Shown here: positions 2,622 through 16,389 of the stretch, piece by piece
Layout of the letters: each line of letters begins with the position of its first letter
How positions within the stretch are numbered: the stretch's first letter is position 1
From: a virus
Lineage: Duplodnaviria > Heunggongvirae > Uroviricota > Caudoviricetes
Strand: one strand, 5' to 3'
DNA length: 53,273 nt
IMG/VR virus record: IMGVR_UViG_3300043464_002177
Made by a program: the position numbers and the translations under genes
The notes under the pieces: generated by a model
The model's input: the letters and a program-made list of their open reading frames with translations, nothing else
Databases searched by the model: none
What the model was told of the DNA's origin: nothing

Positions 2622-4913
2622 TTAATTTAATTTTATTTTTAATTGTTTACCACTTTTATTAACTGCGTCGGTATTTGAAATTGATGTCAATCCCAACGTA
2701 CCTTGAATACCAATTTTTGGTACAAATATTATTTTATATTCAGTTGTTTTATCTAATATTGTTGAACCATCAGTAATTAAAGAACCGATTGTTACATAAT
2801 TCCCCTTGTTTGTTCCAAAATTAGTTGGGTTACCTTTTGTTACAAATTCTACCTTTTGAAATTCTAATGCTGTGTTATCATAATTTAATTGGAATTGCGT
2901 ACCAACTAATTCTTGTTGTAAAGGGTCCACCGATATTGTTACAACCACTTTCCCCCCAATATTTTCGCTCATAATCATTGCGTTAATTTCGTTTGAAATA
3001 GCGTTTGTTGTTAAACTCATACTTCTAATTGAACTACTAGCAACGCTGTTTACTGTTTGTTGAGCTGAATGTGATAAATTTACATCACCAACCCAAGTTA
3101 CATTTACGTTATATGTGTTATTCAAAGTACCACTATTCAAATTGAATGGGTATAAACTTCTAGTTGAATTGAATTGTGTGTTCCAATTCGTTTTAGTAAT
3201 TGCATCATATTCTGATTTACTATATAACTTCATTAAATAAGTTAATGTAGAATATTCAGTAAGTGATCTTGCCCCAGTTAAATGTTGTAATAATCTATAT
3301 GTGTCGGCCTCATTGAATAAACCATTTCCATCTATATCAGCATTCATAAATTGAATACCAGATGTGAATTCCAAACCACTTTGATTTCCAAATATTCCAC
3401 CGTTTGATAATTCTTTAAATGCAATAAACACATCTGATACTGTTACAATACTATTATATAGAGTGTTTAAATCAGTTTGATTGGTATATGATAAGTCGAT
3501 TCCATGTTGCTTAAATGCGGTGGTTGGTGTAAATGTAAACTCGGCTTTTAATCCGTAAAATCCATTTCCTGCCCTTATAGATGGCGCGAAAGACGAACCT
3601 GAGAAATTAAATTGTGTTGAGGTATAAACATAAACTTCAGTCCAACCATTTGCATCATATGAATTAAATGTTACAGGTCCGTTCCATAAATCAAATAATT
3701 GTAAACTACTAATTGTAGATGGATTGGTAAGTATACCATTTACTTCTCTACTATCAATACCAATTCTATATCTTTGGTTAGTTACATCATAATCATAAAT
3801 TACACACCATTCTACTTGTCCTGTGGTTGTTGTTGCTCTAATACCACCATTACTTACTTTTGCGGTATCTAAATCATTTGTAATATCAACTTTACCCAAC
3901 CCACTTAATACTCTTGATGTGTTAGTTGTTGTACCCCACACATTGTTTACATATCTGTTTGCCTTTGCTGAGAATTTGGTCTCATCTATATTACCACCAA
4001 AGTCAAAATTGAATCTTGCAGTTAATACCTCTCCGTTTGAATGTGTTACTGAATTTGTATAAAACTCTGTAAATGTTGCATCGTCAGGATTAGCCCAAGT
4101 TCCAAATTCAATCACATACGGATTTGAAAAATGGTTTGGTAAATCATTCCATTGAGAACCATTCCATTTAGTTACAGCATAATCTTCGTTACCACTATTG
4201 TTTGGTTCACCGGGTGCCCAGTTATTATATTGGCCTGGAATGTTTCCGTTTAGTTGTCCGTTATTTATTTTAATTAAAGTTCCAGCTTCAGGGCCCGCAT
4301 CAATTGTCCATCTAGCTTCACTTGCTTCATCAGTTAATGCAAACCAAATATTTGATTGAGGTACGTTATTAAAAATAAAAGCATCTTCATCTGCTGAAGT
4401 GATTGTTACTAAGTATCCTTGTTGTCCTTTGAATGTTTGTTGTGATGATAGTGTTCTAGCATTTGTATAAGTTGCTCCGGTTGATATTGGTCTATAAAAG
4501 TGTCCATTTGTTCCGTTATAAAAATATCCCGTCGGATTTACAGTTGCTGCTACCGATAGCGCGATATTACCTCTTACCGAACCTGTGTTTACTTTTAGAG
4601 ATGCTAAAGCTGTATTAATATTCGCCATCGTTCCCGTTACCACTAAACGAGTTTTATTACCAACTAAAGTAAAACCACTTGCAGCTGTTAAACCTGTTGT
4701 TGTGGTTAAATAAAAAGTTGTACCTGATGGTGGATTAACCAAACTGATTGATGCTAATATCGTTGCAGTAGAGTTAAATCCACTTAAACTAAATCCACTA
4801 GCATCTTGTCCCGTTGTGGATGGTAAAAATGATTTAGAGTCCGGAGCAGATACACTCTGTCCGAACCCTAAAAATGAGATTAGTAAAAAACATATTACTA
4901 ATAATTTTTTCAT
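2622..4913 (-). CDS. secreted C-type lectin domain protein with dockerin-like and C-terminal cohesin-like modules
   Basis: Signal peptide; C-type lectin motifs (GYLVTITS, YNNWAPGEPNN, EDYA, WND); EF-hand-like ADIDGNG..ADTYRLLQHL; C-terminal GTQFQLNYD cohesin-like strand. Confidence 0.7.
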   Translation of the reverse strand: MKKLLVICFLLISFLGFGQSVSAPDSKSFLPSTTGQDASGFSLSGFNSTATILASISLVNPPSGTTFYLTTTTGLTAASGFTLVGNKTRLVVTGTMANINTALASLKVNTGSVRGNIALSVAATVNPTGYFYNGTNGHFYRPISTGATYTNARTLSSQQTFKGQQGYLVTITSADEDAFIFNNVPQSNIWFALTDEASEARWTIDAGPEAGTLIKINNGQLNGNIPGQYNNWAPGEPNNSGNEDYAVTKWNGSQWNDLPNHFSNPYVIEFGTWANPDDATFTEFYTNSVTHSNGEVLTARFNFDFGGNIDETKFSAKANRYVNNVWGTTTNTSRVLSGLGKVDITNDLDTAKVSNGGIRATTTTGQVEWCVIYDYDVTNQRYRIGIDSREVNGILTNPSTISSLQLFDLWNGPVTFNSYDANGWTEVYVYTSTQFNFSGSSFAPSIRAGNGFYGLKAEFTFTPTTAFKQHGIDLSYTNQTDLNTLYNSIVTVSDVFIAFKELSNGGIFGNQSGLEFTSGIQFMNADIDGNGLFNEADTYRLLQHLTGARSLTEYSTLTYLMKLYSKSEYDAITKTNWNTQFNSTRSLYPFNLNSGTLNNTYNVNVTWVGDVNLSHSAQQTVNSVASSSIRSMSLTTNAISNEINAMIMSENIGGKVVVTISVDPLQQELVGTQFQLNYDNTALEFQKVEFVTKGNPTNFGTNKGNYVTIGSLITDGSTILDKTTEYKIIFVPKIGIQGTLGLTSISNTDAVNKSGKQLKIKLN

Positions 4914-4914
4914 A

Positions 4915-6567
4915 TTACTCGACGATTAAATCAACTTTATTTCCTTTTGCATCAACAGCATCTGATAAAACAAAGAAGAATAAACCGGCGGTATTAGTTA
5001 AAGTGGTTTTTGGTGTAAATATTAATTTATACGGTGTACCAACTTTAATTCTTGCAGTTTTAGTTTGATCAATAGAACCAAACGTTAATCTACGACCTTC
5101 ATGTGTTGTGAAGTTAGTGATTGTAGAACCTGCATCGAATATTACATCATCCAAACTTAATTTTGAATCATCATAATTCATGATAACTTGTAAGCCCGCC
5201 AATTCTGCTTTTGTTAATGTTGTTGTTAATATCACTTTACCGTTCTCTAATGTTGATGACACCCCTAGTTTAGCGGTTTCAACAGTGGCTGTTTTATATG
5301 CCATAGGTGTTGACATGCTCATAGTTTTTAATGTGTTTACTTCGCCATTTACAGAGTTGGTATATATTCCAGAACTTATTCTGCTAGCAATTACTGCTGG
5401 ATCAGATGAATGTGACCAGTTCAAATCACCACCCCAAGCAAACACTGCATGAACTTCTTTTATTGGTGTATCGATCAATACTCTATTCTTAACCACACCA
5501 TCTAACCAACTTTGATTTAATAAACCACTATACCATCTAACTGATGTTGAAGTTGATGTCGGGATCATTGCGGTTGTTGTCATGTTTTGTCCCATAACAT
5601 GGGCAAATAAAGCATATGAATCAGCTTCTCCAAACGTATTTGAATTAAGTGTAACTTTACCAACTCTTTTCTCCAATGCTGGTAGTGTAAAGAAGTTAGG
5701 TGTACCACTAATATCTGTTTGTGAATGCCCTAAAAATGCTTTATATGCATCTGATACTGTCACGATATTATTCATCCACGCTTTAGTCATTGCCGGTCCA
5801 ACAAATACACCAACTGAATCACCAACCTTAACTTGTGTTGTGAAAAGTGCTTCACCACTAGCATCTAATGGTAATTGAGCAATTGGTTGTTGTGACCAAT
5901 CGATATCACCACTACCATCTGATTTTAATCTCATTAATTGAACACTATGATCAGTAATTGTGTAACCTTGTGGAAATAATACTTTAACTTTAAATTGTGA
6001 TGTATTACCAACAACCCCAGTTAAAGATGACGAACCACCACCATATATTGTTCCAACATTAGCACCAGTTGTATCTGTACCTGTAGCTAAATCAATTTTA
6101 AAAATATTATTATAAGTGTTCTGATCTTTTAAAATGTATTTTTGTGTTGCTATTAATCCGTTAATAGATTGATCAGCTCTTTGAACTGTTAATTGACCAA
6201 CATTCCAGTCAGCGTTTACAGCATAATTCCAAGGTGTTAATCCATACTGAACATCTAAATTATTATCACCACCTTGACTATTATGTGTAAATTTATAGTT
6301 ATTCCAACCTGTATAAAAAGTTTGTGCTGATGATCCTTGGTTAAAAGCTGTTGAAACATATGTTAACGCTTTATTATTAAACTGATATCTAAACCAAATA
6401 TAACGTGGATTCTTTATTACAGTACCTTTTGTTAAATTATATCTAACAGTAATAGTATCACCAACCTTTAATCCACTTGCTGGTGTTAAAGATTGACTTA
6501 TTGTTAGTTGAGCAAATGACGAAAGAGATATCATGAATATCCCTAAAAATAAAATTAGTTTTTTCAT
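4915..6567 (-). CDS. secreted cohesin/dockerin-like domain protein
   Basis: Signal peptide; VGDTITV N-terminal and GLQVIMNYD C-terminal cohesin-like modules; shares VTVSD, GD(L/V)N.SHS and the C-terminal domain with the 763-aa neighbour. Confidence 0.65.
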   Translation of the reverse strand: MKKLILFLGIFMISLSSFAQLTISQSLTPASGLKVGDTITVRYNLTKGTVIKNPRYIWFRYQFNNKALTYVSTAFNQGSSAQTFYTGWNNYKFTHNSQGGDNNLDVQYGLTPWNYAVNADWNVGQLTVQRADQSINGLIATQKYILKDQNTYNNIFKIDLATGTDTTGANVGTIYGGGSSSLTGVVGNTSQFKVKVLFPQGYTITDHSVQLMRLKSDGSGDIDWSQQPIAQLPLDASGEALFTTQVKVGDSVGVFVGPAMTKAWMNNIVTVSDAYKAFLGHSQTDISGTPNFFTLPALEKRVGKVTLNSNTFGEADSYALFAHVMGQNMTTTAMIPTSTSTSVRWYSGLLNQSWLDGVVKNRVLIDTPIKEVHAVFAWGGDLNWSHSSDPAVIASRISSGIYTNSVNGEVNTLKTMSMSTPMAYKTATVETAKLGVSSTLENGKVILTTTLTKAELAGLQVIMNYDDSKLSLDDVIFDAGSTITNFTTHEGRRLTFGSIDQTKTARIKVGTPYKLIFTPKTTLTNTAGLFFFVLSDAVDAKGNKVDLIVE

Positions 6568-6569
6568 TT

Positions 6570-7112
6570 TTACTTTTTGTTAAAAAATACTTTGTTTATT
6601 AAAGACTCACAAGTCTTTTTAATTGCTGAAGAAAGTGCTTGTTGATTTATTTTATCACTTCCCTCATCAGTTATTAATGTTGATGTTGAAATCTCAGAAC
6701 TAGATTCTTCTGCAATAGCGTCTTTTATTTTTTTACCCGATTTATCTGTTAACGTACCCTTCATTGTTACTAAAGTCTCCTCAACATCGGAATGAAAAAC
6801 GGATATATTTCTTTTAGTTCTATTCACATCAAAATACATGATCTCTGAACTAAAAACTAAATCTGCTGATTCTTTATCTTCAACAATGTTGAATCCTTTT
6901 TCCTGAAGAATTTCCTCAAAGATGTTTTTACAACCAAAAGCCAAATTTCGATTGTTCGCTAACTTACCAATTTTGATTTTGTTCTCTACACCTGATATAT
7001 AAACTGATTTAGGATCTTCGATCGGATTTACTATATATGAGTATAATCCAAAGAACCCAAAAACAACTAATAACGGTAATAGAGACACGTTTAGTGTTTT
7101 ATTTCTTGCCAT
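6570..7112 (-). CDS. membrane-anchored periplasmic protein (CsgG/LptE-like alpha-beta fold, tentative)
   Basis: N-terminal TM segment then ..FEEILQEKGFNIV..ADL....I pattern; start moved to ATG at 7112 (MARNK) just after a TATTTAT motif. Confidence 0.55.
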   Translation of the reverse strand: MARNKTLNVSLLPLLVVFGFFGLYSYIVNPIEDPKSVYISGVENKIKIGKLANNRNLAFGCKNIFEEILQEKGFNIVEDKESADLVFSSEIMYFDVNRTKRNISVFHSDVEETLVTMKGTLTDKSGKKIKDAIAEESSSEISTSTLITDEGSDKINQQALSSAIKKTCESLINKVFFNKK

Positions 7113-7216
7113 ATTGATAAATATCACTAAGGCAACTACTAGTACACAACCTGCCCGATTTTTATATTATTTTATATTAATTTTTTATTTTTCTTGATTT
7201 TTAGAATACTTATTAT

Positions 7217-7224
7217 TATCTTTG
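7217..7224 (+). promoter_or_regulatory. Bacteroidota-type -7 promoter element (TATCTTTG) for leader 1 / tRNA array 1
   Basis: Matches TAnnTTTG consensus, with TTG upstream. Confidence 0.7.
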
Positions 7225-7253
7225 TTAAAGATTTAAAATTTAAAAAGAATTCA

Positions 7254-7352
7254 ATGAGACAACAAAAACATACAATGTCATTTATTATCTGCTCAAAATG
7301 GGCGGATGAGCGTGCTATGTCCGATAGTCTCGAAGATACTGATGTGGGTTAA
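7254..7352 (+). CDS. leader peptide of tRNA array 1 (32 aa, MRQQKHTMSFIICSKWADERAMSDSLEDTDVG)
   Basis: Short ORF between promoter and terminator; codons 8-24 all read by array-1 tRNAs. Confidence 0.8.
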   Translation: MRQQKHTMSFIICSKWADERAMSDSLEDTDVG

Positions 7353-7376
7353 ATTAGTTTAACTTAAAATATTAGA

Positions 7377-7410
7377 AAACCTCGGGACAAAATCTCGGGG
7401 TTTTTTGTTT
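7377..7410 (+). terminator. intrinsic terminator / attenuator upstream of tRNA array 1
   Basis: AAAACCTCGGGA-caaaa-TCTCGGGGTTTT stem followed by U-tract. Confidence 0.8.
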
Positions 7411-7412
7411 TT

Positions 7413-7482
7413 GGGCCGGATGTCAATGGCAGACCACCTGATTTGCAATCAGAGTGAATGGGTTCGATTCCCAACGTGTCCA
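7413..7482 (+). tRNA. trnA: tRNA-Ala(UGC), degenerate acceptor stem
   Basis: G3:U70 and A73, loop TT-TGC-AA, T arm ATGGG-TTCGATT-CCCAA; two mismatches in the acceptor stem. Confidence 0.65.
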
Positions 7483-7487
7483 CATAT

Positions 7488-7560
7488 TCTTAGGTAGCTC
7501 AATGGTGAGAGCACCCGCCTGATACGCGGAAGGTTGATAGTTCGAATCTATCTCTAAGAA
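7488..7560 (+). tRNA. trnI: tRNA-Ile(GAU)
   Basis: Cloverleaf; anticodon loop CT-GAT-AC. Confidence 0.9.
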
Positions 7561-7565
7561 CATAA

Positions 7566-7638
7566 GGAGATGAAGCTAACTTAGTAGAAGCGGAGGACTG
7601 AAAATCCTCAGGAATTGGAGCGTAACCAATCATCTCCA
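7566..7638 (+). tRNA. trnF: tRNA-Phe(GAA), atypical T loop
   Basis: GGAGATG/CATCTCC acceptor; loop CT-GAA-AA; T loop AGCGTAA. Confidence 0.85.
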
Positions 7639-7642
7639 CAAT

Positions 7643-7716
7643 GATCTCGTAGCTCAATTGGTTAGAGCACTACACTTTTAATGTAGGGGTTCTGCGTTCG
7701 AGTCGCAGCGGGGTCA
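7643..7716 (+). tRNA. trnK: tRNA-Lys(UUU)
   Basis: Cloverleaf; loop CT-TTT-AA. Confidence 0.92.
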
Positions 7717-7722
7717 CATTAC

Positions 7723-7793
7723 ATGGGTGTGGTGCAATGGTAGCATTCCGGTCTCCAAAACCGTCGATGGGAGTTCGAATCTCTCCACCCGTG
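7723..7793 (+). tRNA. trnW: tRNA-Trp(CCA)
   Basis: Cloverleaf; loop CT-CCA-AA; G73. Confidence 0.9.
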
Positions 7794-7807
7794 CTAAAAA
7801 TAAAATT

Positions 7808-8062
7808 ATGGATAATGACAACGTATTAAACAGATTAGTACCAAGATTAAAAAAAATAGGAATAGAGATTGAAATGTCTGGAAATATCCCTTGGATTTAT
7901 CTTGATAAAGTTAATGGGAATAGAGTAAAAAAAGAAGATTATTTCTGTGGCAATCACGGTTTTACAATTGCGTTTTATCCCATTAAACCTGATCAAAAAA
8001 TGGAACTAACAGATATAAAAGAGGTCTTTAGAATAATAAGGAAATATAAAACGGTCTCATAG
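7808..8062 (+). CDS. hypothetical phage protein inside tRNA array
   Basis: ATG at 7808 after A-rich leader (the track start 7727 lies inside tRNA-Trp); stop overlaps tRNA-Arg. Confidence 0.75.
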   Translation: MDNDNVLNRLVPRLKKIGIEIEMSGNIPWIYLDKVNGNRVKKEDYFCGNHGFTIAFYPIKPDQKMELTDIKEVFRIIRKYKTVS

Positions 8063-8123
8063 TTTAATGGAAAAACGTCTCGCTACGGACGAGATAATTG
8101 GGGTTCGAATCCCTGTGAGACCT
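8053..8123 (+). tRNA. trnR: tRNA-Arg(ACG)
   Basis: GGTCTCA/TGAGACC acceptor; loop CT-ACG-GA. Confidence 0.9.
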
Positions 8124-8183
8124 CTGTTCACAAAAACTTATTGTTCACGGTTCGTGAACAGCGAACAAATGTGAACAAAATAA

Positions 8184-8254
8184 GTCAGGTTGGCCGAGTG
8201 GTTAGGCTGAGGTCTGCAAAACCTCCCACATTGGTTCGAATCCAATACTTGACT
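8184..8254 (+). tRNA. trnC: tRNA-Cys(GCA)
   Basis: Loop CT-GCA-AA; U73. Confidence 0.92.
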
Positions 8255-8256
8255 CT

Positions 8257-8333
8257 GTGATTGATGTTCGTATGGTAGAACACTAGCTTGTGGCGCTAGA
8301 ATAGAGCGAGTTCGAATCTCGTCAATCACCCCA
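8257..8333 (+). tRNA. trnH: tRNA-His(GUG)
   Basis: Loop TT-GTG-GC; C73; encoded CCA; T rather than G at -1. Confidence 0.9.
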
Positions 8334-8334
8334 T

Positions 8335-8403
8335 TGTGGGGAGGTTAGGTAACCCGTTTGGTCTCATAAGCCAGATATCCAGGTTCGATTCCTGGCCCCG
8401 CAA
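8335..8403 (+). tRNA. trnM: tRNA(CAU), probable elongator Met with shortened D arm
   Basis: TGTGGGG/CCCCGCA acceptor; loop CT-CAT-AA; D loop only ~4 nt. Confidence 0.7.
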
Positions 8404-8435
8404 CAAATAGATTTGAAATATTAAAAATAATTTCT

Positions 8436-8443
8436 TATCTTTG
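8436..8443 (+). promoter_or_regulatory. internal Bacteroidota-type promoter (TATCTTTG) upstream of initiator tRNA
   Basis: TAnnTTTG with TTTG at 8412-8415. Confidence 0.7.
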
Positions 8444-8453
8444 TTAAAGAAAT

Positions 8454-8525
8454 CGCGAGATAGAGCAGCGGTAGCTCGGAAGGCTCATAACCTTTAGGTC
8501 GGGGGTTCGATTCCCTCTCTCGCAA
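8454..8525 (+). tRNA. trnfM: initiator tRNA-fMet(CAU)
   Basis: CGCGAGA..TCTCGCA with C1:A72 mismatch; loop CT-CAT-AA. Confidence 0.85.
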
Positions 8526-8543
8526 CTAAAACTTAATAATACT

Positions 8544-8672
8544 ATGGCGAAAGCACCTAGAACATCGAAAAGAGTTGCAAAAAAAGCTAGTAAAGCACTT
8601 AAAAGTGGTAGCACTAGTAAAACAACAAAAACTTTAGCTGGTTCAGCTTTACGTCAGCGTAGAACTAAGTAA
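8544..8672 (+). CDS. small very basic protein (42 aa, MAKAPRTSKRVAKKASKALKSGSTSKTTKTLAGSALRQRRTK)
   Basis: Manual translation; A-rich upstream; K/R/S/A-rich. Confidence 0.7.
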   Translation: MAKAPRTSKRVAKKASKALKSGSTSKTTKTLAGSALRQRRTK

Positions 8673-8677
8673 AAAAA

Positions 8678-8862
8678 TACAGGTGACGACGGAGGTGGAA
8701 CCCCTCTGTCTATAAATCTCAACACCCGCCTTGATTCGCGGTATTATAGCGGTGAGAGTAGAGTTACTACAAGTCGGGAGTAATTACCCCAATAACAAAA
8801 ATGTAACCACCAATGTAGAAATATGTTGGTTATGATGTACAAAAGGGTACAAAAAACCTGTA
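8678..8862 (+). ncRNA. candidate multi-stem structured RNA
   Basis: Closing TACAGGT/ACCTGTA helix enclosing GACGGAGG/CCTCTGTC, TCTCA/TGAGA, TAACCA/TGGTTA and TGTAC/GTACA stems; no ORF. Confidence 0.5.
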
Positions 8863-8947
8863 AATTATTGAGACTAACTCAACGAGGACTTTGTCAACCA
8901 GAGCATGACTCGGATGGTGCAATTTAAGGTGAGTTAGAATCAAACAC

Positions 8948-9021
8948 GGATTGTTGGTGAAGTTGGTTATCATGCTACCCTGTCACGGTAGAGTTCACGG
9001 GTTCGAGTCCCGTACAGTCCG
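8948..9021 (+). tRNA. trnD: tRNA-Asp(GUC)
   Basis: Loop CT-GTC-AC; G73. Confidence 0.92.
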
Positions 9022-9029
9022 CATTTATT

Positions 9030-9116
9030 GGAGGCTTGCCAGAGTGGTTGAATGGAACGGTCTTGAAAACCGTCATACTGGAAACGGTATCTGGGGTTCG
9101 AATCCCTGAGCCTCCG
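9030..9116 (+). tRNA. trnS: tRNA-Ser(UGA)
   Basis: Long variable arm; loop CT-TGA-AA; G73. Confidence 0.93.
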
Positions 9117-9121
9117 CACTT

Positions 9122-9193
9122 GCTCGGTTCGACTAGTGGTTAGGTCACCACCCTTTCACGGTGGTTGCACGGGTTCGAATCCCGTACCGAGTA
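9122..9193 (+). tRNA. trnE: tRNA-Glu(UUC)
   Basis: Loop CT-TTC-AC. Confidence 0.92.
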
Positions 9194-9271
9194 CAATATT
9201 TTTTTATATCAAGATATTGATTTACAATATTTTATTCTGTATATTTATCATATTATTAATATTTATAATAT

Positions 9272-9574
9272 ATGATAGATAAAATCACATTATCGTTAAT
9301 GTTATTTTTTAACACATTAACATCATCTATCGACCCAAGTCTTTCCGATGAAAGAAAGTCAGTTAATCAAATAAAAAAAGAGATTAAGTCTCTTGAAAGA
9401 AAGATTGAATGGGTTGAAGTAACAGATGAGAATTACGCTAGCAGGGCCGTCAAAACCAAAGAAATCACGGACGAGATTACCAAATTGAATGGTAAAATTG
9501 TAAAGATTGAGAAGGTAGCAATTTTAAAAGAGAAATGGGCTAAGGAAGATTCCTTGTCCAAATCAAAAAAATGA
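9272..9574 (+). CDS. hypothetical coiled-coil protein with N-terminal signal-like segment
   Basis: ORF track; two TATTTAT motifs upstream. Confidence 0.75.
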   Translation: MIDKITLSLMLFFNTLTSSIDPSLSDERKSVNQIKKEIKSLERKIEWVEVTDENYASRAVKTKEITDEITKLNGKIVKIEKVAILKEKWAKEDSLSKSKK

Positions 9575-10020
9575 AAAAAATTTTTTTAGTGCTAACGTTA
9601 CTTTTGGGAGTGGAAGTCGTAGCAAATGGACAAGAGTGGTTTATAACCGCCACTCGAAAAGGTGGTCCATCAGATGGTTATATAACAGGTGCTTTTATGA
9701 AAAAAGGTTGGGGATTCTATGCGGGTCTTCCATATGGTGAATTGAGTAATCAAAATGGTGGAATCGTAATTCCTCCTGGCGTCAATACCAAAACAGGAAA
9801 CGTATCAGATAACATGAAGTTCGGTGTCCTTAGACAAGTAAAAGAGGACAAGGCGATTGTTGGATTTGGATTACAACCAACAATTGGTGGGAACAAACCA
9901 AATTTTCTTATAATGTACAATCCACTTAGACCAAGTAGTGTTATAAATCTATGGACAATTGGTAATGTTGTTGGTGATGATTTAACATTAGGACTTGGAT
10001 TATCATATAAAATAAAATAA
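9571..10020 (+). CDS. secreted, possibly small outer-membrane beta-barrel protein
   Basis: Signal peptide; amphipathic strands, C-terminal GLGLSYKIK. Confidence 0.6.
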   Translation: MKKIFLVLTLLLGVEVVANGQEWFITATRKGGPSDGYITGAFMKKGWGFYAGLPYGELSNQNGGIVIPPGVNTKTGNVSDNMKFGVLRQVKEDKAIVGFGLQPTIGGNKPNFLIMYNPLRPSSVINLWTIGNVVGDDLTLGLGLSYKIK

Positions 10021-10045
10021 TTTAGTTAACTATTGATAGTTTTCG

Positions 10046-10053
10046 TATATTTG
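10046..10053 (+). promoter_or_regulatory. Bacteroidota-type promoter (TATATTTG) for leader 2 / tRNA array 2
   Basis: TAnnTTTG 17 nt before the leader ATG. Confidence 0.7.
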
Positions 10054-10070
10054 CATATACTTATTAAACG

Positions 10071-10178
10071 ATGAAGAATATAAATAACATATTAACGAGT
10101 ACAAGACCCCTTAACAATGGTAATGGGTATGGTGTGCAACCGTTAAATTACTTATGTTCGGATATTAATAGAGAATAA
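10071..10178 (+). CDS. leader peptide of tRNA array 2 (35 aa, MKNINNILTSTRPLNNGNGYGVQPLNYLCSDINRE)
   Basis: Short ORF between promoter and terminator; codons 3-28 all read by array-2 tRNAs. Confidence 0.85.
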   Translation: MKNINNILTSTRPLNNGNGYGVQPLNYLCSDINRE

Positions 10179-10201
10179 TAAAATCTTAAACTTATATCAA
10201 G

Positions 10202-10235
10202 ACCCGAACAAACTAAAAAATGTTCGGGTTTTTTT
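10202..10235 (+). terminator. intrinsic terminator / attenuator upstream of tRNA array 2
   Basis: ACCCGAACA-loop-TGTTCGGGT plus U-tract; competing TGTTCGG inside the leader ORF. Confidence 0.85.
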
Positions 10236-10293
10236 ATGTTATTTTTTATTCTTATATTTGAATTAGTTCTTTGACATATTGGAAAATCGTAAT

Positions 10294-10379
10294 GCCTGGG
10301 TGATGAAATCGGTATACATGCAAGACTTAAAATCTTGTGGGCCGTAAGGCCCGTGCGGGTTCGACCCCCGCCCCAGGTA
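10294..10379 (+). tRNA. trnL: tRNA-Leu(UAA)
   Basis: Long variable arm; loop CT-TAA-AA. Confidence 0.93.
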
Positions 10380-10384
10380 CAATT

Positions 10385-10457
10385 GGTCTGGTAGCTCAGT
10401 GGATAGAGCAACTGCCTTCTAAGCAGTAGGTCATTGGTTCGAATCCAATCCGGATCA
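10385..10457 (+). tRNA. trnR: tRNA-Arg(UCU)
   Basis: Loop CT-TCT-AA. Confidence 0.93.
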
Positions 10458-10459
10458 CT

Positions 10460-10597
10460 AAGATAATGGTCTGATGTTATTATGATTGTCGACAAATCAT
10501 GGTAACTATTAAACAGACAGCACCCTCTGCCGATGCATCGTAAAACTATTACTAAGCAGTTAAGATTGGAACGAGACGGGTATTCCAACATTATCTT
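10460..10597 (+). ncRNA. candidate multi-branch structured RNA between tRNAs
   Basis: AAGATAATG/CATTATCTT closing helix with GTCTG/CAGAC, CTGC/GCAG and TTGGAA/TTCCAA internal stems. Confidence 0.5.
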
Positions 10598-10602
10598 TAT
10601 TT

Positions 10603-10676
10603 TGGGAATTAGCGTAGTCCGGTATCGCGCTTGGTTTGGGACCAAGAGGCCGTAGGTTCGAATCCTGCATTCCCAA
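10603..10676 (+). tRNA. trnP: tRNA-Pro(UGG)
   Basis: Loop TT-TGG-GA. Confidence 0.92.
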
Positions 10677-10681
10677 CAAAA

Positions 10682-10753
10682 GCTGATGTAGCTCAACGGC
10701 AGAGCAATTGACTGTTAATCAATAGGTTGAGATATCGTAATTCTCCATCAGCG
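10682..10753 (+). tRNA. trnN: tRNA-Asn(GUU), atypical T loop
   Basis: Loop CT-GTT-AA; T loop ATCGTAA; G73. Confidence 0.85.
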
Positions 10754-10760
10754 CAACAAT

Positions 10761-10841
10761 GGCCGAGTGGTGAAATGGGAGACACGCTAGTTTTAGGCAC
10801 TAGTGTCGAAAGACGTGAGAGTTCGAATCTCTCCTTGGTCA
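10761..10841 (+). tRNA. trnL: tRNA-Leu(UAG)
   Basis: Loop TT-TAG-GC; variable arm. Confidence 0.92.
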
Positions 10842-10846
10842 CAAAA

Positions 10847-10926
10847 TGGGGTATCGCATAGCGGCAATTGCGGCTGACTGTAAATCAGCTCCTTAGGGTT
10901 CGGCGGTTCGAGTCCGTCTACCCCAA
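10847..10926 (+). tRNA. trnY: tRNA-Tyr(GUA)
   Basis: Loop CT-GTA-AA; variable arm. Confidence 0.92.
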
Positions 10927-10940
10927 CAAATAAAAATATT

Positions 10941-11060
10941 ATGAACAGAGAAGAACATTTAATTAAAACATTTCCAACTAAAGAAGGGAAAACATATATT
11001 CAATCTTTAGATGAGCATAATTCAAAAAAAGGAAAAAAAATGAAAAAAGAAAAAAAATAA
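10941..11060 (+). CDS. small lysine-rich hypothetical protein (39 aa)
   Basis: Manual translation MNREEHLIKTFPTKEGKTYIQSLDEHNSKKGKKMKKEKK. Confidence 0.5.
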   Translation: MNREEHLIKTFPTKEGKTYIQSLDEHNSKKGKKMKKEKK

Positions 11061-11068
11061 AAATATAT

Positions 11069-11175
11069 GCCGGAGTGGCGGAAAGAGGTATGTACAGCCT
11101 TGAGACGTCCCCGAACTAGGAAGGGTGGTGTATCCGAAATGGACATCGTGTGAGTAACCAATCTCTCCTCCGGCA
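11069..11175 (+). ncRNA. tRNA-Leu-like RNA with D-loop insertion and non-canonical anticodon and T loops
   Basis: Perfect GCCGGAG/CTCCGGC acceptor + A73, Leu-type GCGGAA..AGACG D arm, extra hairpin, no TTCG motif. Confidence 0.6.
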
Positions 11176-11182
11176 CCGCATT

Positions 11183-11259
11183 GGACTTGTAGCTCAGTTG
11201 GTTAGAGCACTTCACTCATAATGAATAGGTCCCTGGTTCGAGCCCAGGCTGGTCCACCA
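11183..11259 (+). tRNA. trnI: tRNA(CAU), probable Ile2 (lysidine-modified, reads AUA)
   Basis: GGACTTG acceptor, A73, loop CT-CAT-AA, CCA encoded; Ile2 identity is inferred (ATA codons occur in leader 2). Confidence 0.75.
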
Positions 11260-11262
11260 AAT

Positions 11263-11335
11263 AGAAGATTAGCTCAGATGGAAGAGCGCTTGCCTTACAT
11301 GCAAGATGTCACTGGTTCGATCCCGGTATCTTCTA
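11263..11335 (+). tRNA. trnV: tRNA-Val(UAC)
   Basis: Loop CT-TAC-AT. Confidence 0.92.
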
Positions 11336-11341
11336 CAATAA

Positions 11342-11413
11342 GCCTCTTAAGCATTGCAGGCGATGCGCATGACTTGTAATCATGATAACTCGGTTCGATT
11401 CCGGGCGGAGGCT
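11342..11413 (+). tRNA. trnT: tRNA-Thr(UGU)
   Basis: Loop CT-TGT-AA. Confidence 0.9.
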
Positions 11414-11418
11414 CACAA

Positions 11419-11491
11419 GCGAGTATAGTATAATGGCTCATTATGCCTTCCTTCCAAGTAGGATATGTCAGTTCGATTCTGACTACTCGCT
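11419..11491 (+). tRNA. trnG: tRNA-Gly(UCC)
   Basis: GCGAGTA/TACTCGC acceptor, U73; loop CT-TCC-AA. Confidence 0.92.
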
Positions 11492-11570
11492 CAATTCAAG
11501 TACCCGTATCGCACAGTAGGGTTAAATAAGATGGGAACTCTGTTGCGAGAGCCAGAATGCTTGAAATTAT

Positions 11571-11641
11571 TGTCCTTTGGTGTAACGGTAGCACAGGTGT
11601 TTTTGGTGCATCTAGTTGGGGTTCGAATCCCTGAGGGACAA
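11571..11641 (+). tRNA. trnQ: tRNA-Gln(UUG)
   Basis: Loop TT-TTG-GT. Confidence 0.9.
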
Positions 11642-11645
11642 CAAT

Positions 11646-11731
11646 GGAGGGTTACCCAAGTTGGTGAAGGGGGCAGTTTGCTAAACTGTTAGGTCATTCG
11701 TGGCGCGAGGGTTCGAGCCCCTCACTCTCCG
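11646..11731 (+). tRNA. trnS: tRNA-Ser(GCU)
   Basis: Loop TT-GCT-AA; long variable arm; G73. Confidence 0.93.
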
Positions 11732-11736
11732 CATAT

Positions 11737-11881
11737 TGTAGTGTGACGAAATTTGGCAAACGTACCGTCCTGTCTCGGCGGTGTGGAGCATCTGATAAAC
11801 GTAGGATAATGGGTTGACCACAAAGCGCGCAATGTCCTATGGCTAAAGACCACTTGGATGGTTCGAATCCTCCCACTACAG
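11737..11881 (+). ncRNA. tRNA-like RNA with ~74-nt variable arm (GUC in anticodon position)
   Basis: TGTAGTG/CACTACA acceptor, class-II-type D arm, CCGTC/GGCGG stem with loop CTGTCTC, TTCGAAT T loop, long hairpin insertion 11782-11855. Confidence 0.7.
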
Positions 11882-11910
11882 CTAAAATAATTATATTAAA
11901 ATGAAATGAA

Positions 11911-12372
11911 ATGAAACAATTTAAAACTCTCTATGGAACTAATATTCCTGATTTGATTGGGTATGTAAGAGAATACATCTCAACAAGAGAGAACGTAGAA
12001 ATTCTCATTGGGTCTGACTCACAATGTTACGGGCATAAAAAAACTATCTATGGTGTTGTAATTGCATTATATACACCAGGGAAAGGTGCTCATGTGTTGT
12101 GTAATCGTGAAACTACCCCGATGGAATATAATACCCCATCTAGATTGTTAAATGAAGTTTGGAGATCCATTGAAATTGCTGAATGGATGAAAGAAAATGG
12201 TTTACCTAAAGCCACATGGATTGATATTGATCTTAACCCAGATCCAAAATTTAAATCAAACTCAGTTTTAAGACAAGCAGTTGGATTAGTTGAAGGTATG
12301 GGTTATAAGGTAAGGTATAAACATTTAGGAGCATTAACAACATATGCTGCAAACCATTTAGTTAGAATTTAA
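11911..12372 (+). CDS. RNase H-like YkuK/DUF458 family protein
   Basis: Motifs IGSDSQ, RLLNEVWRS, IDIDLN recalled as typical of the family. Confidence 0.7.
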   Translation: MKQFKTLYGTNIPDLIGYVREYISTRENVEILIGSDSQCYGHKKTIYGVVIALYTPGKGAHVLCNRETTPMEYNTPSRLLNEVWRSIEIAEWMKENGLPKATWIDIDLNPDPKFKSNSVLRQAVGLVEGMGYKVRYKHLGALTTYAANHLVRI

Positions 12373-12420
12373 AAAAAAAATATTTTTTTACAAATTCTTC
12401 TTTTTTTGAAATATATTATC

Positions 12421-12428
12421 TATCTTTG
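12421..12428 (+). promoter_or_regulatory. Bacteroidota-type promoter (TATCTTTG) upstream of the large ncRNA
   Basis: TAnnTTTG with TTTG ~-33; followed by boxA-like AGTTCTTTGAA at 12447. Confidence 0.7.
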
Positions 12429-12464
12429 TAAAAGAGTTAAGGAAATAGTTCTTTGAATTAAAAA

Positions 12465-13268
12465 TATTGGCCGCCTATGGTCGATTAAAATAAACCATGA
12501 AAGTGGGATAAAGTGAATCTGAATTAGTTGTTTGGGTTTGCGGTTTCAGCAATGGAACTTGAGTAGGCAAGCGGGATATCATTAAGCCGTAAGTACTGAG
12601 GGTGACACTGTAGGGAAAGTGGTTTGGTGACTGAGCGATACCGGTCGTTTGGTTGAGGTGGGAACACCAATAAGAATAACTCGTAGAATTGTTGTGAGAA
12701 ATATGACCTCCAATCATATTATTGCGGGATTCAATACAATGGGAATCTTAAAACCGAAAGGTATGGTTGTGTACAGGTGGTGCTGTTACAATCCTTGATT
12801 TAAATCTACCAAGGTTTTTATCTCGAAGGGGTCCAGAAGTGTGGAGGCAGGGATGTCTCAGAGGGTAGTTTAGTATCGTGTCGTCCAAAAGATGGCATGG
12901 CTGGCGGCGAGCCACTACCTTCCAGATCGGTAACTAAAATCATTTTGTTAATTCAGGTTTAACAACTTATAAACAAAAGGAAAAGTGCTCGTCAGTCATT
13001 AGAGACAGGTGACTACATAGTCGTGAGGGGTTCACGGCCACAAAGGGTCCCAAGCCCAATGTGAGTTTCCAGAAAGTTCTCTAGTCCCGCAAGGACTAAT
13101 CGGGGTGGCAACCTCGAAGAGTAATAAGTAAGGTGAGAGTATCTAATGACTTAAGGATTGGTTAATCTAATTGACCGTCACTGGTTGGTACAGTTCAAAA
13201 GACTGTGGATATGAGAGGAAACAATAATCTTTCTAAAGTCAACTACTAAAACTTGTAATCTCAGAGTT
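12465..13268 (+). ncRNA. large structured ncRNA, GOLLD-like
   Basis: ~800 nt with no credible sense ORF, GC-rich, many GNRA/CAAAA-capped hairpins, long-range pairing 12596-12632 with 13237-13264, own promoter and terminator, next to a phage tRNA array; family assignment not computed. Confidence 0.65.
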
Positions 13269-13343
13269 TTTATTTTTTTAGTTTAGAAAAACTAAATGGT
13301 GGAAGAGACCTCACAAAAATATTAACCGTGCGGCCCCGAATTG

Positions 13344-13372
13344 AGTCAGAAGAAATTCTGACTTTTTTTTTG
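13344..13372 (+). terminator. intrinsic terminator after large ncRNA
   Basis: AGTCAGAA-gaaa-TTCTGACT + long U-tract. Confidence 0.85.
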
Positions 13373-13403
13373 TTTTTAAAAAAAAATTAAGTATATTATG
13401 TGA

Positions 13404-14150
13404 ATGAGAATCATTTGCATATCAGATACACATAGTCTTCACCCAATGATGGGTTATGATCTACCTGAAGGTGATGTTTTAATCCATTCGGGTGATTGTA
13501 CAAATAAAGGTCAACGTCAAGATGTTGAGAATTTTGTTCATTGGTTTATGGATCAAAAATATGATACAAAGATCTTTGTTGCTGGTAATCACGATTTTGC
13601 ATTTGAAGAACATAGATACCCACATCACAAAGGAGATTACGATTGGTATTATAATTTAATGGATAAAGAAACATTGTCACAATCCGATGTAGTTTATTTA
13701 GAAGATAACCAATGTATAATTGACTCACCAGAATTCTCCAGACCAATAAAGTTTTGGGGTAGTCCATGGCAACCAGAATTTTATAATTGGGCATTTAATT
13801 TACCAAGACTAGGTGAAGATCTTCAAAAGTATTGGTCAATGATTCCTGAAGATACTGATGTATTAATAACACATGGGCCGCCTCATGGATGTAGAGATTT
13901 TGTTAGTAATTGGAGACAAGGAGACATGAACGTTGGTTGTGAATTACTTGCGTTCCATGTGGAACGTGTAAAACCATTATTACATGTATTTGGTCATATT
14001 CACGGGGCATATGGAGGAATGTATAAAAATGATACATTATTTGTTAATGCTGCCATCTGTACTGAACAATATATTCCATCAAATAAACCTATCATCGTTG
14101 AATTAAAAGAATACGATGGCGAAATTGTAGCAACTTATGTCGAAGAATAA
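13404..14150 (+). CDS. calcineurin-like metallophosphoesterase
   Basis: DTH, GD, GNHD, THGPP, GHIH motifs. Confidence 0.92.
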   Translation: MRIICISDTHSLHPMMGYDLPEGDVLIHSGDCTNKGQRQDVENFVHWFMDQKYDTKIFVAGNHDFAFEEHRYPHHKGDYDWYYNLMDKETLSQSDVVYLEDNQCIIDSPEFSRPIKFWGSPWQPEFYNWAFNLPRLGEDLQKYWSMIPEDTDVLITHGPPHGCRDFVSNWRQGDMNVGCELLAFHVERVKPLLHVFGHIHGAYGGMYKNDTLFVNAAICTEQYIPSNKPIIVELKEYDGEIVATYVEE

Positions 14151-14820
14151 CGAACCAATAAGTGTTGTTATACCAACACGAAAAATTGATGATACATACT
14201 TAAAGCATGTTGAGAAAATGTTCTCTCATCCTAGAACTGAAATTTTAATTTATGAGAATGATGGTAGCGAACCATTAGCCAAAATTTATAATGATGGATT
14301 AAAAGATGCTAAGAATGATATTATTGTTTTCATGCATGATGATTTAATTCTTGAAACAAAAAATATTACACCTAAAGTCATTAGGTTATTTGATAAAAAC
14401 CCTCAATATGGTATTATTGGTTTAGCCGGTACAGATAACCTTCTTAGTGGAATGTGGTGGCAAGATAGATCATCAATGTATGGTATTGTTGGTCATGAAC
14501 ACGAAGGTAAGCGTCATGTCAATCATTACTCAAAAGGTGATTACAGTGAAAACTTAAAAGAGGTGATCGTTGTTGATGGGTTATTTATGATGATTCATAG
14601 AGAAAGATTAAAACATACTTTCAATGAACAGTTTGAAGGGTTTCATTTTTATGATCTACCAATATGTGTTGAAAATCATTTAAATAGTGTTAAAATTGGT
14701 GTGACAACCAAAATTAGAGTTACACATAAATCGGTCGGTATGGTTAATAAAAAATGGGAGAAGAATAAATTATTCTTTGAAGCATTATATGATAAGAATT
14801 TCCCTTTGAAAATCTCTTAA
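14137..14820 (+). CDS. glycosyltransferase family 2-like protein
   Basis: YNDG, VFMHDD, VDGLF, FHFYDL motifs. Confidence 0.8.
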   Translation: MSKNNEPISVVIPTRKIDDTYLKHVEKMFSHPRTEILIYENDGSEPLAKIYNDGLKDAKNDIIVFMHDDLILETKNITPKVIRLFDKNPQYGIIGLAGTDNLLSGMWWQDRSSMYGIVGHEHEGKRHVNHYSKGDYSENLKEVIVVDGLFMMIHRERLKHTFNEQFEGFHFYDLPICVENHLNSVKIGVTTKIRVTHKSVGMVNKKWEKNKLFFEALYDKNFPLKIS

Positions 14821-14827
14821 CTATTTA

Positions 14828-14835
14828 TACCTTTG
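14828..14835 (+). promoter_or_regulatory. Bacteroidota-type promoter (TACCTTTG) of tmRNA
   Basis: TAnnTTTG followed by boxA-like AGTTCTTTAAA. Confidence 0.65.
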
Positions 14836-14855
14836 TAATAGTTCTTTAAAATAAT

Positions 14856-15255
14856 GGGGGTGTCTGGTATTGATTGGCGTTGATATGGTAAATGGGCACG
14901 TAGTCGGATGTCATCTACGACTTTAATCCACGGTGGTAAAATTTAAACGGCAACGTTTATAACAACATGGAAGCTTGCGGCTTGATCGCAACTTCTAACG
15001 TAGCAGTAGCCTAAGGCGAAACTATATCGGGTCGACTGGCATATAACCTAGGAACAGAAGCCTTCAAGGTGTAATACCGCCTCAGAGTGTTGGAGAATGG
15101 TCTGATTGTCTCTTTAAAATCTAGTCAGAAACAGGTTTGTTGTGTAGCTGTGTATGAAACCAACTATTTGTCAGTTGAGAACCAATTGAATAAACGTGTA
15201 GTCCATTTATGATATGGCGAGCAAGACACGGGTTCGAATCCCGTCACCTCCACCA
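14856..15255 (+). ncRNA. ssrA: tmRNA; tag (A)GNVYNNMEACGLIATSNVAVA at 14949-15014
   Basis: GGGGGTG..ATTGA 5' end, T arm GGTTCGAATCC, CACCTCC-A-CCA 3' end with G3:U70, internal tag ORF ending in hydrophobic AVA-stop. Confidence 0.93.
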
Positions 15256-15256
15256 T

Positions 15257-15283
15257 AAACCCATCTTCGGATGGGTTTTTTTA
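15257..15283 (+). terminator. intrinsic terminator after tmRNA
   Basis: AAACCCATC-ttcg-GATGGGTTT + U-tract. Confidence 0.88.
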
Positions 15284-15423
15284 TTTGGTACCTCTATAAA
15301 CGAACAAAAGGTCCGAAGACCCTTTGCCGAGATTTAGAATACCTCCTTTCGTTTTTTTTCTATTATCATTTGATGGCGACCAAACCAATCAAACTCTGAT
15401 AATAAATATCTTTTAAACAACAA

Positions 15424-16389
15424 TTATTTAAATTCTTGTAGGTATTTTCTTAATATTTTTTTTCTTGATTCTTGCATAATAGAAGAATCTGATCCTGGAA
15501 CTTCAAATGGATCTTTTACACTGGTAGCTTGATTTGTTGAACTGTTACTTGCTGCTGACCCATCATTTAATTTTGGCCAAGTATCTTTACCAACAGCACC
15601 ATCATCTTCTAATCCGTTAGCTGCCTGAAAAGCCATAACCATTCTTTTTGTTCTGTTACCAAAAATACCGTCTGGTTTATCATTTTTACTTACGTGAATA
15701 AATCCTTTAGCAATTAATAATTCTTGAATCTTTGTAACAATATCACCTCTCATTCCCACTTTAACAAATTTACCTGCCGCTAAATCATCACCAGTTAAAT
15801 TTGTATCAGTAATTGTTGTGGTGTTAGACGATGAAGATGATGAAGATGATGAGGCTGAACTAGTAGTCCATTTATTAGTTTTAGATGAATAAGTACTACC
15901 ATCATCTAATTTAATAGTATATGCATCTGTTCCGTCACAAGACCATGAGCCATTCTTTTTACTAAAACTACTATGAAATCTATTATTAGAAAAAAATGCC
16001 CAGTAAGCTGGTTTTTTGGTATCATCATCAACAGCATCATATCTTACATAATTATGACTTTTAACAAATTTAAGATCAGTGTCTTTTAAAAGGCAATCAA
16101 AAATACCACCAGCCGTATTAGATGAACCACCGCAATATGTTAATTTTTTTGCCCAAGTAAGATCGCATGCGAATTTTTCAAAAAATGCTTTTTCGGTAAA
16201 TGGCGGTTCAAAAATACCCATATTAGTGATATTGGTAAAAAGGGCTTTAACAGACGCCTCGTCTTTAAAATTCGCTGCAGTCCAATCAGGATATCCTTTT
16301 GGATATTTTTGAGCAAATTTAACAACCTCCTTATTTTTGGTTGCAAATCCTAAAACATCATTGAATAATTTTTTTCTTTTATCTTCCAT
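15424..16389 (-). CDS. peptidoglycan-binding domain protein
   Basis: PG_binding_1-like VTKIQELL..DGIFG..TKRMVMAFQ..NGLEDDGAVGKDTW; Ser/Thr-rich linker. Confidence 0.8.
   Translation of the reverse strand: MEDKRKKLFNDVLGFATKNKEVVKFAQKYPKGYPDWTAANFKDEASVKALFTNITNMGIFEPPFTEKAFFEKFACDLTWAKKLTYCGGSSNTAGGIFDCLLKDTDLKFVKSHNYVRYDAVDDDTKKPAYWAFFSNNRFHSSFSKKNGSWSCDGTDAYTIKLDDGSTYSSKTNKWTTSSASSSSSSSSSNTTTITDTNLTGDDLAAGKFVKVGMRGDIVTKIQELLIAKGFIHVSKNDKPDGIFGNRTKRMVMAFQAANGLEDDGAVGKDTWPKLNDGSAASNSSTNQATSVKDPFEVPGSDSSIMQESRKKILRKYLQEFK

Follow-up and report, generated by a model that had tools for sequence, protein, structure and literature searches.

Two tRNA arrays and their leader cassettes

The window, as we call the whole 53,273-nucleotide (nt) stretch of Caudoviricetes DNA analysed here (IMG/VR record IMGVR_UViG_3300043464_002177), carries two tRNA arrays on its plus strand, each preceded by a short open reading frame (ORF) and an intrinsic terminator. 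Array 1 (7413–9194) comprises 13 tRNAs: Ala-UGC, Ile-GAU, Phe, Lys, Trp, Arg-ACG, Cys, His, two with the anticodon CAU, Asp, Ser-UGA and Glu. Array 2 (10294–11732) comprises Leu-UAA, Arg-UCU, Pro, Asn, Leu-UAG, Tyr, a CAU tRNA, Val, Thr, Gly, Gln and Ser-GCU. An original prediction, made from the DNA letters, had placed a promoter, a leader ORF and a terminator in front of array 1 and had read them as an attenuator with codons matched to the tRNAs downstream; all of these elements were found where it placed them. A promoter with the Bacteroidota-type −7 element TAnnTTTG (TATCTTTG, 7217–7224, plus strand) sits inside the 16-mer TTATCTTTGTTAAAGA (7216–7231) and is followed on the same strand by the 32-codon leader 1 (MRQQKHTMSFIICSKWADERAMSDSLEDTDVG, 7254–7352, with ATG at 7254 and TAA at 7350–7352). 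The intrinsic terminator, recognized by folding and by a hairpin search, occupies 7376–7412 of the plus strand (AAAACCUCGGGA / UCUCGGGGUUUU plus a U-tract); its hairpin (7373–7407) has 15 pairs, 5 of them G–C, and leads into a T-run that leaves a gap of 1–2 nt before tRNA-Ala starts at 7413. The gene upstream of array 1 is divergent (6570–7127, minus strand). A sister cassette (10071–10237, plus strand), consisting of leader 2 (10071–10178) and a terminator (10201–10237), stands in front of array 2.

Relatives were collected through two flanking proteins, which retrieved 97 IMG/VR loci (labelled L plus a number) on contigs of up to 334 kb. A DNA search of a named-phage collection returned tRNA-level matches only and no close relative, and the sequencing runs that contain the stretch are lake-water and freshwater metagenomes. 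About 40 non-redundant leaders of related IMG/VR giant phages share the same order of a 29–53-codon ORF, an intrinsic terminator and then a tRNA array. Both leader types are conserved, leader 1 with the core HTMSF[IT]ICSKWA and leader 2 with the core N[IL]NNI..RP.N.GNG[YR]G. The TAnnTTTG element lies 27–54 nt (mostly 33–39) upstream of the ATG in 21 of 22 leader-1-type ORFs and 25–54 nt (mostly 25–39) upstream of nearly every ATG when leaders 1 and 2 are taken together; single-array leaders are without the motif. A crude finder located a terminator downstream of 48 of 50 leaders, and one is visible by eye in the remaining two. Most leader-1 cassettes have no promoter motif between the terminator and tRNA-Ala, where the gap is just 0–17 nt. 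The original prediction had named the absence of a conserved ORF or antiterminator pairing in relatives as a ground for abandoning it; we found the ORF, the terminator and a complement to the terminator arm kept in the approximately 40 non-redundant leaders.

Leader codons follow array content

Codons 8–24 of leader 1 (7275–7325, plus strand), which we regard as its regulatory core, were predicted to be read by array-1 tRNAs throughout, with His supplied by codon 6. Each of these codons is indeed read by an array-1 tRNA, 11 of 12 specificities are sampled, and codon 6 is His. The full match depends on counting a low-scoring tRNA-Ala(UGC) (7413–7482, plus strand; 30.1 bits against an Rfam cut-off of 29), which ARAGORN missed even at a relaxed threshold and which an nhmmer profile of orthologues recovers (E 3e-6). 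This tRNA keeps the G3:U70 pair, the anticodon arm and the T arm and has two mismatches in the acceptor stem. As a control for chance, each sense codon was assigned to the array whose tRNA reads it, and the six frames of the 53-kb window were searched, giving about 26,000 runs. The longest array-1-only run among them is leader 1 itself (7275–7325; 17 codons), with a runner-up of 13 codons and no more than 8 specificities in any of the others. Among array-2-only runs, the longest belongs to leader 2 (10077–10154; 26 codons, 12 of 12 specificities), ahead of one of 16 codons. Each of these two top runs is flanked by a promoter-like motif and a terminator and directly precedes its own array.

Chance is excluded as the source of the match because the top array-1-only and array-2-only runs of the window are the two leaders, in agreement with the earlier argument that the split of codon sets speaks against coincidence. 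Short ORFs are common in AT-rich spacers, and the antiterminator of the window is not significant when taken alone (see below), both of which would fit a chance ORF beside an ordinary terminator. Such an origin is nevertheless vanishingly improbable against the first rank of leader 1 among about 26,000 runs, the same rank of leader 2 for the other array, and the conservation and co-variation of the cassette in relatives.

The order of tRNA genes varies among lineages, which provides a natural experiment on leader content. Six loci (L031, L032, L033, L034, L040 and L046) have both tRNA-Val and tRNA-Thr in array 1; their leader 1 reads MKRFTHIITMSFTTCSKWAEVADIRMSR-gIV, where 29 of 30 codons are read by tRNAs of the same array and each of the 14 specificities, Val and Thr among them, is sampled, and a Thr codon occurs in none of their six leaders 2 (…YIQQP[LS]NNPLSGNGRGIYL…). 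The sisters L083 and L084, with tRNA-Thr in array 1 and array 2, respectively, have 0 versus 2 Thr codons in the leader-2 core. Where the Asp and Glu tRNAs lie in the other block (L026), leader 1 (…SKWTAIRHIPMSR) has neither D nor E, and where Asp and Ser-UGA have moved to array 2 (L094), the first 19 codons of leader 1 (MKRFTHITFTTFAAKWCAM) have neither D nor S. The Thr and Gly tRNAs of L052, L058 and L078 are located upstream of the leader; the leader cores of L058 and L078 hold the other 18 amino acids without T and G, and L052 retains one Thr. The L052 group was also searched for a mini-leader that would serve the Leu/Thr/Gly tRNAs preceding the leader, and none was found. In the single-array phages L048, L062, L067 and L074, leaders of 44–53 codons contain all 20 amino acids. 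The listed shifts represent at least five separate rearrangements.

We pooled 47 leader–array pairs across 22 specificities, taking as core every codon of the ORF except the start codon and the last nine, and counting a cell as agreeing if and only if a tRNA in the leader's own array coincides with a codon for it in the core. Agreement was observed in 917 of 1,034 cells (odds ratio 67), compared with a mean of 546 and a maximum of 685 when arrays were permuted among leaders (5,000 permutations), figures that overstate independence because the lineages are related. The match extends to codon boxes. Leader-1 cores use CGN for Arg in 10 of 10 cases, UCN for Ser in 44 of 44 and AUY for Ile in 25 of 25; leader-2 cores use AGR for Arg in 16 of 16, AGY for Ser in 17 cases and UCN in 8, and AUA for Ile in 22 cases and AUY in 1. 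Box choice is thus nearly absolute for amino acids with isoacceptors divided between the arrays, a pattern that selection on peptide sequence would not generate. Two other measures were set aside. The 'purity' of whole ORFs, scored against their own or other lineages' arrays, proved uninformative because one of the array sets compared contains the other entirely and because codons at the N-terminus and in the tail have no control role, and an unconstrained codon-run search across all contiguous tRNA blocks was dropped because it was swamped by low-complexity coding sequence and over-large blocks.

Alternative folds and the proposed switch

The control codons stop where the candidate antiterminator strand, region 2 (codons 25–27; 7327–7335, plus strand), starts, a geometry that corresponds to the textbook attenuator model. 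When the 3′ arm of the terminator is left out, the minimum-free-energy (MFE) fold pairs GUCUCGA (7327–7333) with UCGGGAC (7382–7388), and this helix encloses a spacer hairpin (7339–7375, plus strand) that contains the stop codon. The full-length fold forms the terminator (regions 3 and 4; 7376–7387 with 7393–7404), and GUCUC at 7327–7331 then pairs with GAGAC at the start of the ORF (7256–7260, plus strand), a possible region 1. A candidate pairing between ORF start and ORF tail is likewise predicted in the MFE folds of most relatives. A further 11-bp hairpin is predicted within the core (7285–7309, plus strand; codons ICSKWADE) and may serve as a pause hairpin. For 7320–7412, the terminator state (−23.8 kcal/mol) and a forced antiterminator state (−20.6 kcal/mol) are close in energy.

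The original prediction had region 2 (7327–7335) pairing with 7380–7388 in the 5′ arm of the terminator. This pairing stands: the MFE fold computed without the 3′ arm contains it, and a homologous pairing is kept in relatives; its weak point is the window itself, where it is the weakest of the family (p = 0.08 versus shuffles) and, taken alone, suggestive. A stretch of the ORF tail, mostly −28 to −2 nt from the stop codon, is complementary to the 5′ arm of the terminator in nearly every lineage, and this stretch changes along with the terminator stem through compensatory substitutions, over 12 stem variants. Arm and complement read, respectively, CCCTGAGA and TCTCGGAG in L006, AACCTCGGG and CCCGAGGT in L031, AACCTCGGGA and TCTCGAGGTT in L094, ACCCTGAC and GTCAGGGT in L045, CCTCTAAC and GTTAGAGG in L048, CCCCTAAC and GTTAGGGG in L055, GCCCTGG and CCAGGGC in L062, TCCTGGTT and AACCAGGA in L067, GCCCTGGT and ACCAGGGC in L074, and ACCCGAACA and TGTTCGG in leader 2. 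Against shuffled sequences, the antiterminator duplex reaches p ≤ 0.05 in 34 of 48 leaders and p ≤ 0.01 in 22 of 48, and its mean energy is −10.6 kcal/mol versus −2.9 kcal/mol for the 48 nt at the 5′ end of these ORFs. Pairing was scored sequence by sequence; a MAFFT alignment of 18 leader 3′ regions had register shifts that made fixed-column pair counts unsuitable.

These data also bear on a reading that makes the ORF, together with its terminator, a stand-alone unit for a functional micro-protein, has the tRNA array transcribed from another site and treats the codon match as incidental. In its favour, conservation of the peptide core (…CSKWA…) across lineages is good, and array 1 contains an internal copy of the promoter. 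However, synonymous box choice tracks the tRNA arrays, amino-acid content shifts with tRNA gene content, and complementarity between the ORF tail and the terminator arm persists across many compensatory variants. Moreover, there is neither a promoter motif nor room for one between the terminator and tRNA-Ala, and the divergent orientation of the upstream gene means that no other transcript reaches the array from that side. We consider a micro-protein of this kind very unlikely.

Four features expected at the sequence level of a leader-peptide attenuator are all present. A short ORF lies behind a promoter and ahead of the regulated genes (7217; 7254–7352), its control codons match the product of those genes (codons 8–24; the pooled agreement above; box-specific), an intrinsic terminator separates the two (7373–7407, with tRNA-Ala at 7413), and an alternative pairing could be masked by a ribosome at the end of the ORF (weak alone in the window; p ≤ 0.05 in most leaders). 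The elements themselves, their conservation, the co-variation of leader and array down to the codon box, and the compensatory antiterminator/terminator pairing support the attenuator interpretation. On this sequence evidence, leader 1 is very probably a ribosome-mediated leader-peptide attenuator that raises transcription of array 1 when the codons of the array are decoded slowly, in a giant phage with a Bacteroidota-type host.

In the scheme that we propose, leader translation, termination, the direction and size of the response and its natural trigger are what we infer from this arrangement. Transcription would start just downstream of the TAnnTTTG promoter, at about 7230, and a ribosome would load on the 32-codon leader. 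Codons 8–24 would call, once or a few times each, for Ala, Ile-GAU, Phe, Lys, Trp, Arg-ACG, Cys, Met, Asp, Ser-UGA and Glu; codon 6 would add a call for His, and the start codon one for the initiator tRNA. With all of these tRNAs supplied, the ribosome would enter codons 25–32 and the stop codon and would cover both region 2 (7327–7335) and the spacer hairpin; the terminator (7376–7404 plus the U-tract) would then form and halt transcription 1–2 nt before tRNA-Ala. Should any one of the sampled aminoacyl-tRNAs be scarce, the ribosome would stall upstream of region 2, which would be free to pair with the terminator 5′ arm (7380–7388), and the polymerase would read through and transcribe the array. 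The outcome would be a negative feedback loop sustaining exactly the array-1 subset of the tRNA pool. Candidate triggers are the decay or cleavage of host tRNAs during infection and heavy demand from phage genes.

The same cassette could be real and respond to something broader than the abundance of the phage's own tRNAs, such as ribosome availability, charged-tRNA levels in a starving host or infection timing, so that general translation capacity or amino-acid starvation would be the signal and the codon match would merely broaden the sensor. An attenuator is blind to the difference between a missing and an uncharged tRNA, as in the trp and his attenuators, where the two are indistinguishable, and the single-array relatives sample all 20 amino acids as a general gauge of translation speed would. 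Against this, the leaders of two-array phages split codons exactly as the arrays split tRNAs, including the Arg, Ser and Ile boxes, and leaders drop codons once the tRNA gene leaves the array; a general gauge needs none of this. A signal of general capacity therefore appears unlikely to us, and we retain sensing of array-1 decoding as the preferred reading.

Several observations weigh against that reading. Codons 2–4 and 7 of leader 1 (AGA, CAA, CAA and ACA) are array-2 codons, which may be constrained by the pairing of regions 1 and 2 or by initiation. The leader samples each specificity only 1–3 times, and its match includes tRNA-Ala, a marginal tRNA with two acceptor-stem mismatches. In L004, L006 and L084 the leader-1 core carries a Thr codon while tRNA-Thr is in array 2, Val stays at codon 5 of leader 2 in the group whose tRNA-Val moved, and the relatedness of the lineages tempers the pooled statistics. 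The antiterminator of the window is short (7 bp plus 1, one of them G–U; −9.6 kcal/mol), and under another definition of the arm its p value is 0.58. The promoter copy at 8435 could drive the initiator, Asp, Ser-UGA and Glu tRNAs independently of the attenuator. Finally, metatranscriptome contigs from four RNA libraries essentially do not cover 7254–7412. One low-depth RNA-library contig (depth 2.4) crosses the array-2 terminator (10151–10301) and could be read-through RNA or contaminating DNA.

Neighbouring features, known attenuators and significance

Downstream of tRNA-Ala, the tRNAs Ile-GAU, Phe, Lys, Trp, Arg-ACG, Cys, His and Met-CAU occupy 7488–8404 of the plus strand, with an 84-amino-acid ORF between tRNA-Trp and tRNA-Arg (7808–8062, plus strand). 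The CAU tRNA of this group (8335–8404) has an unusually short D region (Rfam, 33 bits) and finds no BLAST counterpart among E. coli genomes; we presume it to be the elongator Met. An internal promoter had been raised as a caveat at 8436, and an exact copy of the 16-mer TTATCTTTGTTAAAGA does lie at 8435–8450 (plus strand), just 5′ of an initiator-like tRNA-Met; the 16-mer thus occurs exactly at 7216 and 8435, with a third copy at 12420 that has 2 mismatches. The remainder of array 1 (8454–9194, plus strand) consists of this Met-CAU (C1/A72), Asp, Ser-UGA and Glu, with a 42-amino-acid basic ORF and about 270 nt of non-coding sequence in between. The very basic ORF (MAKAPRTSKRVAKKASKALKSGSTSKTTKTLAGSALRQRRTK) follows the initiator-like tRNA at 8544–8672, recurs at 4422–4541 of L009, is 39–42 amino acids long and has no Pfam match.

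In array 2, the best E. coli matches of the CAU tRNA (11183) are tRNA-Ile with the anticodon CAT (lysidine type), which supports the earlier assumption that it reads ATA. A second TAnnTTTG usually lies 3′ of the leader-2 terminator (10253–10293 in the window; also L004–L046, L052 and L078), and a conserved motif (GTTCTTTGACAT) always stands 5′ of the first tRNA after that terminator, also without TAnnTTTG in L052 and L026; these motifs suggest that array 2 may have a promoter downstream of its own attenuator. In L040, tRNA-Leu(UAA) is in two halves about 680 nt apart (5818–5863 and 6548–6599; profile positions 1–46 and 36–87), which suggests that this first tRNA of array 2 is interrupted by an intron or an inserted element. 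Four relatives (L032, L040, L046 and L084) carry a tRNA with the anticodon CUA (ARAGORN 'Pyl CTA') that reads the amber codon, and its presence suggests TAG suppression or recoding in some relatives.

Directly 3′ of array 2, an RNase H-like protein (PF04308, E 1.3e-15; 11911–12372) shows 52–97% identity in all 80 loci retrieved with it, each time next to tRNA arrays. A GOLLD RNA (Rfam RF02032, 321.6 bits; 12861–13267) lies just 3′ of the arrays, with the promoter-like 16-mer at 12420, and freshwater metatranscriptome contigs stack on the GOLLD region (12500–13180) with summed depths in the thousands, far above the flanks. A phage tmRNA (14856–15255; Rfam, 91 bits) encodes, according to ARAGORN, the tag peptide GNVYNNMEACGLIATSNVAVA.

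By analogy, the mechanistically closest systems to the phage cassette are the multivalent ilvGMEDA (Ile/Leu/Val) and thr (Thr/Ile) leaders, together with pheST. With the former, and with trpL, hisL, leuL and pheL, it shares a short ORF near the promoter, control codons 5′ of an antiterminator strand and an intrinsic terminator before the regulated genes; in such leaders the position of the ribosome selects between two RNA folds, and one leader can sense more than one amino acid. However, those leaders regulate biosynthetic enzymes and contain runs of one to three amino acids, whereas the phage cassette precedes tRNA genes and its leaders cover 12–20 specificities once or a few times each. It differs further in its match to isoacceptors (codon boxes), its Bacteroidota-type promoters, the absence of a Shine–Dalgarno sequence and the lack of sequence similarity. 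In E. coli, the pheST attenuator places a leader of Phe codons before the genes for phenylalanyl-tRNA synthetase, and it is established that leader-peptide attenuation there governs a translation component through the decoding speed of cognate codons. It is cellular, controls a synthetase and senses one amino acid; the phage cassette is viral and precedes tRNAs.

T-box riboswitches likewise place a terminator/antiterminator switch before translation-related genes and report the state of specific tRNAs, but they bind uncharged tRNA directly and have no ORF, whereas the ribosome would be the reader in the phage cassette. A search of 6500–16000 (E ≤ 1) gave no T-box or other cis-regulatory Rfam match at family threshold, and in 7200–7412 no Rfam family of any kind reached its threshold; the sole match there is the small RNA STnc180 at chance level (21.7 bits versus a cut-off of 50; E 0.88). 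The T-box covariance model does not fit, and a T-box riboswitch is ruled out. A full-text literature search with most subscription journals outside its coverage returned no description of tRNA genes under leader-peptide attenuation. New elements are the regulated product (tRNAs), the breadth of 12–20 specificities with one or a few samplings of each, the isoacceptor-level match and the viral setting with a Bacteroidota-type promoter.

Phage tRNA genes are commonly viewed as helpers in codon usage or as substitutes for tRNAs destroyed in infection, and we know of little on how their expression is controlled. One possible role, which we put forward tentatively, is that the attenuators are modular sensors of the tRNA pool for counter-defence, through which the phage, with a separate leader for each array, would replace exactly the subset of tRNAs lost to host anticodon nucleases or to phage-induced host shut-off, and would do so only once ribosomes feel the loss. 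On such a role, a tRNA gene that moves between arrays would require the leaders to be rewritten, which is the co-variation observed.

The cassette suggests that a classic switch of the trp-operon type has been adapted as a homeostat of the tRNAs themselves, with a leader that lists the contents of its array box by box and is rewritten when tRNA genes move. If this is correct, the reach of leader-peptide attenuation would come to include non-coding RNA genes, viruses and Bacteroidota-type hosts, and the cassette would be a natural device that senses how fast the codons of up to 20 amino acids are decoded simultaneously. The leader would also be a readable 'label' that predicts which tRNAs share one transcription unit, and the timing of the phage's need for its tRNAs would become testable by simple reporter fusions.

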